From: Octopus vulgaris | Lineage: Eukaryota | Direction of reading: 5' to 3' | DNA: 64,000 nucleotides | Assembly (NCBI GenBank): GCA_951406725.2 | Contig: OX597827.1 | Coordinates: 39,494,001 to 39,558,000 of the forward strand | Part shown: piece after piece, positions 4,345-33,460 of the stretch | Position numbering within the stretch: position 1 is the stretch's first letter | Layout: every line of letters begins with the position of its first letter | Program-made: the position numbers and the translations under genes | The notes under the pieces: generated by a model | Databases searched by the model: none | Seen by the model: only the letters and a program-made list of their open reading frames with translations | Told to the model about the DNA's origin: nothing

Positions 4345-4480
4345 TGTTGTATTTAGGAACGGTCATTTTGCCAGTTTAGCCAATAAATTATTGGCTAAAC
4401 TGGCAAAATGACCATTCCTAAATACAACAACATCTGTTTCAACACATGATTTCACATCAAGAATCTTGCAAAACAAATAT
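4345..4480. repeat. Near-perfect 85 bp palindrome plus 50 bp tail in (TA)n
   Basis: 42 bp arms (4345-4386 and 4388-4429) with one mismatch, then a unique tail. (TA)n on both sides. Confidence 0.85.
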
Positions 4481-4829
4481 ATAAACATATATATATATAT
4501 ACAAATACATACATACATATATATATATATATATATATATATATATATACATATGCATACATACATACATATATATATATATATATATATATATACATAT
4601 GCATAAATTAGTACAGGATGTCACCAACAGTAAACAACATGAAATACGGAAACAAATGAGTTCAATACACAAACAATGAGAGAAACAAATGGAAAACAGG
4701 ATATATATATATATGTATATATATATATATACACATATATACATAAATACGTACATACATATATATATATATATATATATATATACACACATACACACAC
4801 ACACACACACACATAATTCATTATGTGTG

Positions 4830-5577
4830 TGTGTGTGTGCATGTGTTTCCTCTATGCACAGCCAAACTGCTGGATCAATCTGAATGTTTTTCATTACTCA
4901 TGGAAGGTTCTAGAGCAGGGTCACTAACTTTTTTACTTTTTTCAAAAACAGAAATATGTTTTACATACCTGTCATATACGTCGGTTTTGTTTTTTCGCTT
5001 TAAAGGTAAATGATTCTGATAGAAGTAAACACGCTATTGAATAATTCTCTGTCGTACGTCTACAACCCCACCTCTTTTTAAAACGCTTTTTAATTGTGAT
5101 AATGAAACAAGAGGTTTAGTCCTTACTGCCAAAATTCATTTCTCCTGGGAACTATAATGGCGATGATGTCTTCATTCCACGGATCCCATTAGTCGCATAT
5201 GACCTTCCCTATGAATTTAAATGGCTCTGAAACTAAGTTTTGCTATGTTCATAAACAAATCTCAAGCACAATCTCTCAACGTTGTTGGACTTAATCTTAC
5301 TTCTTTCATGGGCAGCTATATGTAGGGTGTTTGCGAATTGGAAGCCCCAAAACTCTTTTTCTTTGTACACCAATTAAAGGATACACTGAAAATATTGTAT
5401 ATTTAGAAGTTCTACAAAATTAAACTGTGACTGATTTCAGGATTTGTTTTAATAACGTTGGTTATACTCACATCATCTGATAGAATTTTTCTGAAGATAT
5501 CTTTTTTATCAGAATGAATATATTTATTTCCTTTAACATTCTTTAAACTTCCTAGCAACATTGGGTACTCAGGCTAG
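4830..5577 (+). mobile_element. Helitron remnant with a PIF1-like helicase C-terminus
   Basis: DDVFIPRIPL...LPYEFK, SFAMFINKSQAQSL..VGL, FHGQLYVGC.RIG. The 3' end is a decayed hairpin followed by CTAG (5574-5577). Confidence 0.85.
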
Positions 5578-7094
5578 CATATGTGTGTGTGTGTGTGTGT
5601 GTGTGTGTGTGTATACATACATACATACATACATACATACATACATACATACATACATACATACATACATACATACATATAAAGCACATGCCTGGCAATT
5701 GGAACATACATATTAATTGATAGCAAGGTACAGTATTTCATTTTGCAACCATATTATGCTACCAAGTATATTAAAGATTTACAAGCCATGTAAATCATTA
5801 ACATCATCATCATCAGCATTATACTCATTTCATACTTGTCTTCCATGTTGTCATAGGTTGGATGGTTTGATAAAGAGTTGCATCTGGCCCCAACATCAGC
5901 TTTGGCATGGTTTCTACAGATGGATGCCCATCCTAATGCCAACAACTTTACAGTGCGTACTGGGTGGTTCTTCCATGACACTGGCACTAGTGAAGTTGCC
6001 AAGTCACTTACAAGACAAAAAAAAAAAGAAAGGAAAGGAAAGAAAGAAAAACCTATTTGACTGAGTGGTATTGTATTTGAGTGCGAGAAAGGTGGATTTA
6101 TGCCTGGTGTTGAAGGGTAAAGTATGATAGAGAGACAAGCACAGGTACTGTATCCCTGTTGACAAGCTCCTAATATTTAAAATAGCGTTAAGACTTATGG
6201 TCTGCAAATTAGTAGCTCTGGTTTTCTATAGCTACTGTAATTGCTGAGAATATAAATAAATTAGCTGATTATTTCTCTGGGGTTTGTCACATTGATGAAG
6301 ATGCCCCTGATGAGAATCCAATAAAAAGTTTTTCATCATTCCTTTCAATCTAGGGAGAAACAGCTAAATTAGCCTTGTTTATAAAAGTACTATATAGTTT
6401 ATTATAGAGAAGAGAAATGGCTACCCCAGTGTTACTAGAGGATGGGTGAGAATAGCTGGAAGGGAGATAAAGCTTGTGATGACAGGGTGCCAGAGCATAC
6501 TCATAAGGTACAAGATGGTGAATATAAAGGAGAATAAACAGAGTGGATCATTGGAGAAAGGAAGGGTGGGAAAGGAGAGTGGCAGATGGTTAGAGATGGG
6601 GCTAGAGGGAGATGTAGTGAGTGACAAACATGGGCAGAGCTGTGGTTGATGGTTAATATCAGTATGGAGGCAGATGAAAGAAAAATAAGTGGCTCAAGAA
6701 GGAGGAGGTAACAAGAAGCCTGAATAATATATCTTTGCTACTAGTTATATCCATGCCAAACTTTTAATAGGTATTTTTAACTGATATGCAGAGCTTTTGA
6801 GTTCAGACACTTACATCTCATGCTTTCCTGATAACAGATCTGTGGAATTGGCCTCTTGCCTCATTTATTTTGAGGCAAGGTTCCTATTTCACTTTTTCTA
6901 GAAACTTACATGAATAGTACTGGCATGGCTGTGTGGTTAGGAAGTTCATTTCTCAACATGTTTTTGAGATTCAGTCCCAGTGTGTGTGTCCTTGAACTTA
7001 TGCCTTGTAAGAGAATTTGGTAGATGGAAACTGTATGTAAGTTTGTCATAAATACACACATTCATGTATGTATGTATGTATAGATTGTTTGAAG

Positions 7095-7212
7095 TAATGT
7101 ACAAATTTTACATATTAAAATAAAGAGGTAATCAGAATTTTGGATAATTATTTTAGTGCTTCCCTCTCAATTTGGGGATTCATCAGAAATGATCACTTCT
7201 GAAGATTCTCCA
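7095..7212. mobile_element. Fold-back hammerhead-bearing element split by the Gypsy insertion (right arm resumes at 10845-10905)
   Basis: Palindrome centre TGATCA near 7190-7196 with CTGA(T/A)GA on both strands. Joining 7197-7212 to 10845-10900 rebuilds the reverse complement of 7120-7190. Confidence 0.65.
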
Positions 7213-7259
7213 TGTTGTAATATAATTTGTTATGTACAATAAATAAGATAGCCAGACAC

Positions 7260-31039: not shown

Positions 31040-31381
31040 TAGTGGTTATGGCTCAGTGGTTAGAGCGTCGAGCTTACGATCGTGAGGTTGTGAGCTCGAA
31101 TCCCGGACCGGGCTGCGTGTTGTGTTCTCGAGCAAGGCACTTTATTTCACATTGCTCCAGTTCACTCAGCTGTAGAAATGAGTTGCGACGTCACAGGTGC
31201 CAAGCTGTATCGACCTTTGTCTTTCCCTTGGATAACACTGGTGGCGTGGAGAGGGGAGGCTGGTATGCATGGGCGACTGCTGGCCTTCCATAAACAACCT
31301 TGCCCGGACTTGTGTCTAGGAGGGTAACTTTCTAGGTGCAATCCCATGGTCATTCATGACCGAAGGGGGTCTTTACCCTTT
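31040..31381 (+). mobile_element. tRNA-derived SINE family C in the GPCR intron
   Basis: A box tggctcagtggttagagc, B box gagctcgaatccc, CpG-rich (young), tail ctttaccctt. Confidence 0.85.
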
Positions 31382-31565
31382 AATATTAAACGATTGTGTT
31401 CTCCTGTTCTGTTTAGTCCATGGATCAAAGAGTCATTGAATAATAAATGTGTGAAGAACAAATATATAGTATGTGATTTATTTGAAAGGAAAAAAAACTG
31501 TTTTAAAAAATGACCATTCTGAAATATAACGATTATTTTTCTATTTTTCTCCTTTGTATTTACAG

Positions 31566-32283
31566 AGTCTGTCGTCCACGTACCTGGCAGTTTACAAGAC
31601 GCTCAGCAGTACACACAGTTGGAGTAGTATTCGCTATTGTCGTCACTGGCACAAGTCCTGGAGTGTTTATATTTGGCTGCCACAAAGTTTCAACATCTGT
31701 GGACCTTGTTGGTTACGAGTGCTTTATTTCTGAGGAATATATCTCCACCATTTTTCCTACAGTCTACTTTGTGTCAATATCAGTAATTTATTTTGCTGCT
31801 GCCATTACCCTTTCATCTATTTACTTCATGGTTGGCTTGAGAGTCCGACGGCACGAGAGGACGTGGCGGTTAAGAGAGAGTCGATCATCACGGCATGATA
31901 TCAACCACTCTGCAATGCTGTCCTGTGACAGGAGAGCACGGAACTTGCTTGCTCCACAGACTGTAAGGCGGTCGAGCATACATTTGTTTCGGACAACACT
32001 TGTTCTGCTGATGATAACCATCATATGGATCATTAGTTACTGGCCAAACCTAATCTTGGTTAACTATGCCATCTCTAAACCAGACATTAAAGCTAACATG
32101 GGTGTGCCGGGTCTCAACAGTTATAATATGGCAGTGAGGAGTTATTTTATCAACAATGCCATTAATCCATTCATTTATGGTTTCTTCAACAGGGGATTTA
32201 GAAGTCAAGTCCTGAAAATCTGGAAAGGTATCTCTAAGTGCTTTCATAAAACTCCAGTACCCTTTTCTGTTGGTTGGCAGTGA
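31566..32283 (+). CDS. Class A GPCR, coding exon 2 (ICL2 to C-terminus); spliced product 367 aa
   Basis: A polypyrimidine acceptor ...tttacag ends at 31565. AG+A restores Arg, giving DRYFRVCRP. ECL2 Cys (YECF), TM6 IWIISYWP, TM7 NNAINPFIY, helix 8 FRSQV, stop TGA at 32281-32283. Exon lengths 386+718 nt = 1104 nt, in frame. Confidence 0.92.
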
Positions 32284-33045
32284 ATTGACAATGATTTAGC
32301 AGTGAATTGGCACTAAATTGGAAATTAATTCCCAGTGAATTGATTATATGTAGGTGGAAAATTGTCAGCAGCAAATTGGTAAAGAATTCTCAGGGAGTGA
32401 CAGTCATCTGGTAGTGAATTCAGAATTTTTGGTGGTACAAATTCTTCATGAAATGATAAGGAAAAGCAGAGATTTAGCAGTGAACCATTAGGTGGTTGTG
32501 AATTTGTAACAAGATGTTTACAGAACTGACATTATAGTAACAGTGCAGAGTGGTGAAATGTTTTTGGGGTGAAAAAATAAATTGCTTGAAGTGGAAAAGT
32601 CTGTGTACAGTAAAATAATTTAGAGTGAAAAATGCAACAATGAGTAGCTGAATTTTAAGAATGATTTGAATATATCAAGTCAAATTTAGCAGCCTAAAAT
32701 CGACGAGAAGGTTTTTTAAAAATAATTTGAAGGTGTAGAAGAAAGAACTGTCACTGCTAGATCTGCTGCTTTAAAATGATGTTATGTTCAGTAACTTTTA
32801 GTAAATCTTCAATATATTATGGTAATACATGTACACACGCAACACATACACACACACACACACACACACACACACACACACACACGCATACATTTATGCA
32901 TATGTATCTGGCAATGGCAATGATGATACATATATGTATGTAAAAATGTGTATACACACACACACACACACACACACACATGTGTAAGTTGTCTAAAAGT
33001 CCCTATGTGAGGAAAAAGATGCACTTGTATATCTGTCAACAGATT

Positions 33046-33460
33046 GGATATATTACCTGAAGTGTACAGTACTATATATCCATCATGGCTGATCTTACCA
33101 ATCGGTTTCGTGCTCAGGGTACAACAGACTGTTAGGTAACAATCTGATTATATAACCCTTCGCTCATCAGAGGTAGCTAATTTGGAATGAAATATGGTGA
33201 CTGCTCTCTATTGTTGGAGGTGAAAGCATTTTTTCTGGTCACCAGTGAGATCATAACATTTTTTCTGGCCTCGCCCTTTAACCTCCAACATAAGAGAGCA
33301 GTAGCCTTATTTCTTTCCATATCAGTTACCTCTGATGAGTATAGGATTATATAATCGGATTGTTACCTAACACTCCATTGTACCTCTAGCACGAAACCAA
33401 TGGGTAAAATCAGCTGTGATGAATATATAATACTGTACTGTACACTTCAGATAATATACA
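33046..33460. mobile_element. ~410 bp fold-back element with a long-stem-II hammerhead-like motif in each arm
   Basis: Arms 33046-33225 and 33280-33460 are reverse complements. Plus arm: CTGATGA 33332-33338, GAAAC 33393-33397, then caatggGTA. Mirror motifs lie at 33164-33170 and 33105-33109. Confidence 0.7.

Follow-up and report, generated by a model that had tools for sequence, protein, structure and literature searches.

Fold-back insertions in the window

The 64,000-nucleotide stretch of the Octopus vulgaris genome analysed here (positions 39,494,001 to 39,558,000 of contig OX597827.1; hereinafter, the window) is animal DNA of 34% GC with abundant microsatellites and contains eight fold-back insertions, that is, pairs of inverted arms that mostly carry a tail on one side. 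Fold-backs are present at 7 of the 7 sites (A to G) named in a preliminary description made from the sequence alone; the eighth (H, 48040-48354) is an addition. These fold-backs are very probably insertion products of several endonuclease-bearing families of Penelope-like elements (PLEs) that accumulated in octopus (TA)n over a long time, and the proposal that they are 3' ends from several Penelope-like families directed at (TA)n, in a number of cases with type I hammerhead ribozymes, is supported. Judging from their sequences, at least two of the families, D/E and C, appear to belong to the Hydra clade. The components of the insertions are the following.

A: 4345-4486, plus strand; young fold-back, arms 4345-4386 and 4388-4429 (41/42 identical), tail of ~57 nt, (TA)n on both sides
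B, left piece: 7109-7212, unstranded; left arm, zero-loop centre at 7192/7193
Long terminal repeat (LTR) retroelement within B: 7213-10839, minus strand; inserted in helix II of the hammerhead of the B right arm
B, remaining right arm: 10840-10913, plus strand; stops at (TA)n
C: 11650-11814, unstranded; fold-back, arms 65/79 identical, Hydra-type hammerhead on each arm
C tail: 11815-11895, plus strand; starts with a decayed GCTC...GAGCAC box (11815-11847)
D long arm: 12916-16740, minus strand; probable 5'-truncated PLE of the Hydra clade, whose 3' end is tail-less and lies in (TA)20 at 12916
D hammerhead: 13013-13055, minus strand; type I, helix I of 4 bp, helix II of 5 bp, palindromic helix III (ACAAUUGU)
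D 3' region: 13056-16575, minus strand; 3.5 kb, T/G-rich, diverged tandem duplications, internal inversion
D endonuclease remnant: 16576-16740, minus strand; last 54 codons and stop, Hydra-type GIY-YIG (CxxC, E, N, CxH)
D short arm and tail: 16741-16950, plus strand; 210 nt, starts at the first base of helix II, 81-nt tail, then (TA)12
E: 28297-28493, unstranded; fold-back, older stub of the D family, (TA)n on both sides, truncated below the hammerhead
F: 29170-29380, plus strand; fold-back, arms 29170-29222 and 29244-29290, tail of ~90 nt, (TA)n on both sides
G: 33049-33458, unstranded; tail-less fold-back, arms 150/178 identical, hammerhead cores intact on both arms (33170, minus; 33332, plus)
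H: 48040-48354, minus strand; fold-back, arms 48124-48229 and 48241-48354 (82/100 identical), left-hand tail of 84 nt, flanked on both sides by (TA)n
Solo PLE-like end: 48377-48669, minus strand; full type I hammerhead (core 48661, predicted cut after 48619), stops in the (TA)n adjoining H

The window yields 7 self-inverted local matches against 0 in each of 20 local shuffles. A (TA)n run of at least four units lies no more than 5 nt from 9 of the 14 ends of the seven originally named fold-backs, compared with 0.22 expected by chance, in agreement with the association noted earlier. The left ends of B and C, like both ends of G, are farther away from such a run. One-sided tails of ~57-90 nt are found in six of the eight fold-backs (A, C, D, E, F and H); the tail of B is short and ill-defined, and G has none. 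D and E represent one family (86% identity over 114 nt by blastn) and are the only related pair, as already proposed, with no other match between fold-backs of the window in the same blastn comparison. These two share both the tailed and the tail-less end and differ in centre and length, as expected if each palindrome forms at insertion.

The identity of the arms spans a wide range, from 129/129 in D and 41/42 in A down to 67/89 in B (7109-7212 with 10840-10913). The arms of E (28377-28493) have 27 identical positions, 2 substitutions and 11 gap columns, those of F (29170-29290) have 44 identical positions and no substitutions but do contain indels, and those of B, C, G and H are 16-25% diverged, mainly by transitions. 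The divergence between arms is a built-in clock, which runs here from 0 to ~25% and indicates that PLEs have been active for a long period that reaches to the present. The perfect double-stranded RNA hairpins envisaged in the preliminary description would fit only A, F and D; most arms are 75-84% alike. Inverted pairs of common repeats similar to short interspersed elements (SINEs), at 7288-9167 and 35426-35808 (88-93% identity over ~187 nt), are candidates for longer near-perfect double-stranded RNA than most fold-backs.

The history of B is legible from the LTR retroelement that splits it. This element has LTRs that are 10-12% diverged, a 5-bp target duplication (CTCCA/CTCTA, with one change), broken pieces of an integrase-like open reading frame (ORF; rve_3, E 4e-4, below the cut-off), a SINE in the left LTR and an inverted SINE in the body. 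The LTRs are less diverged than the arms of B, so that B was inserted first and the LTR element later, and an interruption with a target duplication excludes an assembly artefact for B. For the fold-backs in general, an origin from chimeric inverted reads or from other assembly or amplification artefacts is extremely improbable. Identical arms, as in D, would be expected of such artefacts, and structures of this kind are known to trouble assemblies (PMC8557442); however, the arms of B, C, G and H carry substantial, mainly transitional divergence, the element that splits B has a target duplication and LTRs younger than the arms, the tails are not mirror copies, and E repeats the ends of D independently.

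Several further structures in the window are worth recording. A possible ninth, older fold-back consists of inverted 36-nt arms (16972-17007 and 19329-19364, 83% alike) with (TA)n outside both arms and a 40-nt tail to 19400, and is split by 2.3 kb of nested repeats. A 56-nt repeat (95% identity) occurs twice just upstream of A, at 3643-3698 and 4170-4225. Not counted were the inverted matches at 34545-34878 and 10906-11640, each a pair of common dispersed repeats, and a tiny palindrome centred on TA at 29578-29613.

Element D and the link to Penelope-like elements

The most informative insertion is D, in which a 3.8-kb tail-less arm on the minus strand meets a 210-nt tailed arm on the plus strand head to head. 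The paired segments (12916-13044 and 16741-16869) lie 3.7 kb apart and are identical over 129 nt, and CpG depletion of the interior is not yet under way (observed/expected ratio of 0.77 vs 0.29); D is therefore a very recent insertion. The tail contains a 13-bp hairpin that starts ~10 nt in; the corresponding hairpin in the tail of E differs at two positions, with the pairing preserved as G-U.

ORF evidence for a PLE comes from the last 54 codons in D only, no ORF being found in the other stubs. Over 42 aa, the 54-codon peptide shares 55% identity with a protein designated P0003, which has 28 longer homologs; 16 of these were aligned as proteins of ~700 aa that combine a reverse transcriptase (RT) with a C-terminal endonuclease. 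The homologs carry the marks of the Hydra clade (RWK, DKT/DKS, CxCx5C, CxxC and CxH, with no CCHH); the portion for RWK, DKT and CxCx5C is truncated in D, and the peptide itself has the CxxC and CxH around conserved E and N, as in the Hydra clade (PMC8557442). With a hidden Markov model of the homologs, D is the only element recovered from the window (24.3 bits; next match, 8.9; best match in the reversed window, 4.7). The endonuclease remnant, with its match to the end of full RT-endonuclease proteins, makes the link of D to an autonomous PLE direct, and one of the checks suggested in the preliminary description is thereby provided for this family. In Pfam, no named domain was found in any of six long P0003 homologs, and P0003 itself shows only a weak match to a GIY-YIG-type restriction enzyme; two interior ORFs of D have no Pfam match. 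Hydra proteins were found in none of 97 candidates from viral contigs, and an exact search of metagenome contigs with the D hammerhead gave 0 matches.

The 3' region of D is unusually long: the stop codon and the hammerhead are 3525 nt apart compared with 31-324 nt in 36 of 37 relatives, among which short contigs under-sample long distances. Its duplications are diverged (71-87%), and the region is bounded by a direct duplication of 150 nt; together with the internal inversion, these features suggest an old expansion of the 3' untranslated region of the parent of D, although the 3.5-kb interior could alternatively be a secondary insertion. With 3.8 kb and only 54 ORF codons, D is longer than the short elements (<3 kb) by which Hydra is characterized.

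Hammerhead ribozymes

The bare CUGANGA..GAAA..UH pattern used in the preliminary description occurs at chance level (12 in the window vs 7.5 +/- 5.2) and thus cannot by itself support the presence of hammerheads. When stems are required, three hammerheads remain (11749, plus; 13051, minus; 48661, minus) compared with 0.06 in 100 shuffles, and these, located in the C right arm, D and the solo end, respectively, have a three-helix junction with a conserved core.

A test set was compiled from 77 Hydra-type loci of metagenomes that encode relatives of the PLE protein. Of the 58 loci that extend 150 nt or more beyond the stop, 35 have a 3' hammerhead. A covariance model was built from 33 of 37 hammerheads, leaving out a truncated one (L016), one identical to another (L022, the same as L021) and two with a long helix II (L030 and L033). 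Across these 33 relatives, in a set chosen by a pairing descriptor, 9 of 11 pairs vary on both sides. The model scores 30.8 bits for D, 28.9 and 16.6 for C, 20.5 for 48661 and 13.3 (E 0.21) for B, with only a partial match in G (10.6 bits).

Type I hammerheads are accordingly located in the terminal repeat of D, on the same strand as the ORF remnant (cut predicted after 13017), and of C; the hammerhead of B is decayed and that of G atypical. In C, the core at 11749 (plus; predicted cut after 11778) is accompanied by one at 11715 (minus) with GAAC instead of GAAA. B contains a decayed minimal hammerhead per arm (cores 7186, minus, and 7199, plus). In G, helix II is ~54 nt long, helix III is palindromic and helix I is weak. 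Hammerhead scans of the window found none in A, E, F and H. A scan against Rfam (E<=5) has no hammerhead among the 150 of 216 matches listed, which are to microsatellite-like miRNA models, and the predicted minimum-energy fold of the monomers is a hammerhead only for the C right arm. Three solo motifs were named in the preliminary description; these are at best decayed, none being matched by the covariance model at E<=5.

Solo hammerhead-like motif, decayed: 12108-12183, minus strand; AAAA for GAAA, ~120 nt from (TA)n, likely an old PLE end
Hammerhead-like minimal motif (19207), decayed: 19205-19255, plus strand; both cores changed, at a repeat end adjoining (AAT)n, not (TA)n
Hammerhead-like cores: 23890-23930, plus strand; cores intact, helices lost, possibly an old PLE end

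On sequence grounds, only the hammerhead of D appears clean. The suggestion that the insertions seed the genome with working self-cleaving motifs and perfect hairpins is not supported: most arms are 16-25% diverged, metazoan PLE hammerheads cleave weakly, and no RNA ends were found at the cut in the one PLE tested (PMC11167929).

The hammerheads and the endonuclease remnant bear on two alternative classifications. Miniature inverted-repeat (MITE) or foldback DNA transposons inserting at TA would share the inverted arms and the TA flanks, and G is symmetric and tail-less. Nevertheless, such an origin is highly unlikely: the one-sided tails of A, C, D, E, F and H break the terminal symmetry, hammerheads and an endonuclease remnant are marks of retroelements, and G itself has hammerhead cores on both arms. 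Scarcely more probable is the alternative raised in the preliminary description, according to which the insertions would be retrozymes or specialized palindromic elements, non-autonomous and mobilized as fixed units via self-cleaved or circular RNA. Most copies are indeed short and non-coding, B, C and G have hammerheads on both arms, and retrozymes have been proposed to derive from PLE ends (bioRxiv 10.64898/2026.07.22.740005). However, the head-to-tail hammerhead repeats typical of retrozymes are absent from the window, D and E have common ends but different centres, D contains ORF sequence, and A, B, C, F, G and H are present in one copy each in the window; furthermore, a perfect palindrome would be expected to pair arm with arm and so block the folding of the hammerhead.

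The preferred assignment, to insertion products of endonuclease-bearing PLEs, is not equally strong for all fold-backs. As new PLE members of known architecture, D and E are virtually certain and C is only slightly less secure; B and G are probable members, and A, F and H somewhat likely ones. Several observations count against this assignment. A (which is too short for a hammerhead), F and H contain no hammerhead, box or ORF, and geometry is the basis of their PLE assignment; in B and G, hammerhead cores are present but a clade marker is not. A word-based protein search with the short D peptide gave no match, an atlas search with it gave none, and two of its three phmmer matches, P0001 and P0002, are spurious repeat matches. 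Among the 58 Hydra loci with room for it, 23 have no 3' hammerhead.

Some related loci display arrangements that resemble those of the window. In L057 (1824-2119), as in the window, each arm of a solo fold-back in (TA)n bears a hammerhead and the tail is boxed; in L065 an inverted end surrounds an ORF. Stacked ends of differing hammerhead-bearing PLEs in one (TA)n tract are seen in L034 (2600-2988), L035 and L057 (1720-2180), an arrangement similar to 11650-16975 and 48040-48669 in the window. In L017 (1-148), a palindrome with hammerhead cores on both strands directly adjoins a Hydra ORF at its 5' end. Partial tandems are present in relatives such as L026, L028, L031 and L047; direct pseudo-LTRs derived from such tandems, an optional feature in truncated copies, were not found in the window.

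Formation of the fold-backs

What is observed is the geometry of the fold-backs, namely, 3' ends that point outward both ways, one-sided tails, (TA)n targets and hammerheads in the arms; priming on two strands and the role of the boxes described below are inferred. The RT-endonuclease protein would bind a read-through (tandem) transcript, nick (TA)n on both strands and begin reverse transcription within the 5' leader of the next unit, at either of two fixed internal positions, with one start site giving a tail-less end and the other a tailed end. Two cDNAs, usually both cut short, would then be joined head to head, producing a palindrome with one tail or, as in G, none. In most Hydra elements, the two start sites would be located 0-13 nt 5' of the two boxes, and the tail would correspond to the box spacing. 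The inserted copies would subsequently decay neutrally, with the hammerheads as passengers. A comparable process has been described for lizard Poseidon (PMC11167929), where the protein nicks AT-rich DNA on both strands and extends both, reverse transcription starts at two internal sites the distance between which is the tail, and the hammerhead is dispensable, with no RNA ends at its cut.

The asymmetry of D points to two cDNAs. The long arm has 3.7 kb that the short arm lacks and the short arm has a tail that the long arm lacks, so that neither can be a fold-back copy of the other; because each arm holds sequence absent from the other, two copyings of a template would be needed. A rather unlikely variant of the same PLE origin is that a single cDNA or antisense template primes itself (snap-back) and so yields the palindrome, instead of two independent primings, as proposed for rotifer Penelopes (PMC3846280). 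The short central loops of A, B and C (0-7 nt) and a 9-bp local palindrome at the centre of E are compatible with snap-back, whereas the unpaired centres of 12-49 nt in E, F, G and H are not readily explained in this way, and simple snap-back is ruled out for D. Snap-back may nevertheless seal some junctions.

Paired GCTC...GAGCAC boxes

In 15 of 28 relatives, a recurring motif of the form GCTC-N(8-20)-GAGCAC lies 38-54 nt downstream of the hammerhead cut (controls: 2 of 37 upstream of the cut; 1.2 in shuffles). Upstream of the ORF, 20 of 21 loci carry the same box, mostly as two copies with a spacing of 55-83 nt (15 loci have 18 such pairs), with 66 matches in the sense orientation and 10 in the opposite one. 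The presence of the box in the 5' leader as well as in the tail indicates that the tail is the start of the leader of the next unit.

The boxes also lie close to termini. Where the leader of the same family is available, tail-less ends are 1-12 nt before box 1 (L001 and L022) and a tailed end is 2-6 nt before box 2 (L026). Eleven ends of relatives extend into (TA)n; 7 of them are box-less and terminate 33-64 nt past the cut, and the other 4 terminate 51-62 nt after the start of box 1. In 2 of 9 inverted structures (L057 and L065), the inverted arms stop short of box 1 by 1 and 5 nt, and with C of the window included the arm ends 0-5 nt before it: in C, the box sits exactly at the boundary between arm and tail, the arm ending 37 nt and the tail 117 nt past the hammerhead cut. 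Published consensuses contain the motif, and Hydra-1_Ajap, inspected by eye, starts with it.

The chances are about even that the two repeated hairpin boxes of the 5' leader constitute a sequence code by which reverse transcription starts internally in Hydra-clade PLEs. Each box would be bound by the RT-endonuclease and set the start of reverse transcription a few bases upstream, a dimer would prime both target strands, one per box, and the length of the tail would equal the spacing of the boxes; D and E would represent a lineage that stayed active, with a swapped hairpin and a grown 3.5-kb 3' region. In such a code, box 1 contains a 2-nt bulge as well as an inner stem that is paired. This stem is variable yet paired (44 of 54 positions vs 23 expected, with the register chosen afterwards and the loci partly related), which fits a hairpin in a single strand.

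It is possible, if less likely, that the boxes act at the DNA level (as a bidirectional promoter or as sites bound by the endonuclease) or as signals for translation, and that termini lie beside them for another reason. The GCTC/GAGC inverted repeat is invariant and hence shows no covariation, an inner stem is missing from box 2 (5 of 15 positions paired vs 4.6), both boxes are located in the 5' leader, and the tail in Drosophila virilis is needed for recognition of DNA by the endonuclease (as cited in PMC11167929). The variable but paired inner stem of box 1 speaks against this alternative. The pooled inner-stem energy of the boxes is no better than that of shuffles (-4.90 vs -4.64 +/- 0.24); for box 1 alone it is better.

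Other results speak against a general role of the boxes in initiation. Seven of the nine inverted structures in the loci are box-less; the tails of D and E, which are Hydra by protein, have a different hairpin ~10 nt in and no GCTC...GAGCAC box; and the tails of A, F and H lack the box, so that the rule is not universal. A relaxed pattern occurs in the window 4 times against 3.5 +/- 2.0 by chance, and among these matches only the position at the C boundary is telling. A tailed end is tied to the element's own box 2 in L026 only. No compensatory box variants were found in the 15 loci without a box.

If the code is real, the boxes would explain the one-sided tail, and moving a box would move the start of reverse transcription. 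In either case, they are a short, conserved and mutable cis-element in a family of RTs whose sister is telomerase.

Other features of the window

A two-exon gene for a G protein-coupled receptor (30033-32283; 238 aa 100% identical to an orexin receptor type 1-like protein of Octopus sinensis) is flanked by F (~0.7 kb) and G (~0.8 kb). Part of the receptor region is contained in 20 of 24 sequencing-run entries, in each case as contigs. Fragments of the 3' part of a non-LTR retroelement in (AAT)n are present at 17255-18620 and 37822-38244; their 3' end is tandemly repeated, and they show a zf-RVT match (E 4e-4) and, by eye, restriction-like endonuclease motifs. A tandem repeat with a 25-nt unit in 4-5 copies occupies 59535-59640. 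An exon on the minus strand (61047-61370) has a weak SH3 match, and the window may be partly intronic.

Comparison with known systems

Most of the architecture is familiar. An inverted 5'-truncated copy with a one-sided tail and a bias to (TA)n or other microsatellites have been described for PLEs (PMC8557442, PMC3846280), as have opposite-strand hammerhead pairs 100-700 bp apart and many heterogeneous families per genome (PMC4209133). How the inverted ends and tails form has been presented as an open question (PMC8557442) and was probed in vitro for one element only (PMC11167929). For Octopus, Hydra-1_Obim (Octopus bimaculoides) and three Naiads, all targeting (TA)n, have been listed (PMC8557442), and 31 recently active Penelope-like families have been reported in O. 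vulgaris, with hammerheads and palindromes unmentioned in the part of the repeat annotation covered (PMC13282606). No description of octopus hammerheads was found in the literature searched. The 'very dense population' of such elements suggested in the preliminary description should not be extrapolated from a window picked for density.

The closest system is the Hydra clade, which includes Hydra-1_Obim and Penelope-13_HM, the latter with an inverted truncated copy (PMC8557442). The window shares with it the endonuclease C-terminus (CxxC, E, N and CxH), the type I hammerhead with a palindromic helix III near the 3' end, the (TA)n target and the inverted 5'-truncated partner. By eye, D differs from Hydra-1_Obim in the 3' end and the peptide; the published tails are 30-40 bp long, compared with 51-90 nt here, and paired boxes are unmentioned in the part of the clade description covered. 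No description of the paired boxes was found in the literature searched, subscription papers and Repbase or Dfam notes being mostly outside its scope. The Octopus Naiads (PMC8557442) resemble the window in the (TA)n target, the inverted or tailed ends and the lack of a canonical hammerhead, and could be the parents of A, F and H; six short motifs of the window have no exact match in the portion of the supplement covered, which is a weak test.

Penelope and Poseidon (PMC3846280, PMC11167929) have the same head-to-head arms and palindromic junctions and the same optional one-sided tail set by two internal starts of reverse transcription. Their tail, however, falls in the ORF start near an AC-rich stem-loop, whereas the Hydra tail is the 5' leader between two repeated boxes. 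The minimal hammerheads of metazoan PLEs (PMC4209133) likewise form many families, mostly solo with some opposite-strand pairs, and have a palindromic helix III; there is no difference in kind, apart from a much longer helix II in G. Cleavage by these metazoan hammerheads is weak and depends on dimers or protein (PMC4209133, PMC11167929). The non-LTR retrozymes (PMC7229834) share type I hammerheads in short non-coding repeats but form head-to-tail tandem arrays of 150-450 bp units expressed as circular RNA, whereas the window contains head-to-head pairs or solo ends. Altogether, the fold-back architecture itself is known, and the paired boxes are the part that looks new; to the known systems the window adds unannotated octopus PLE families, the stubs of which are easily filed as MITEs or unknown repeats.

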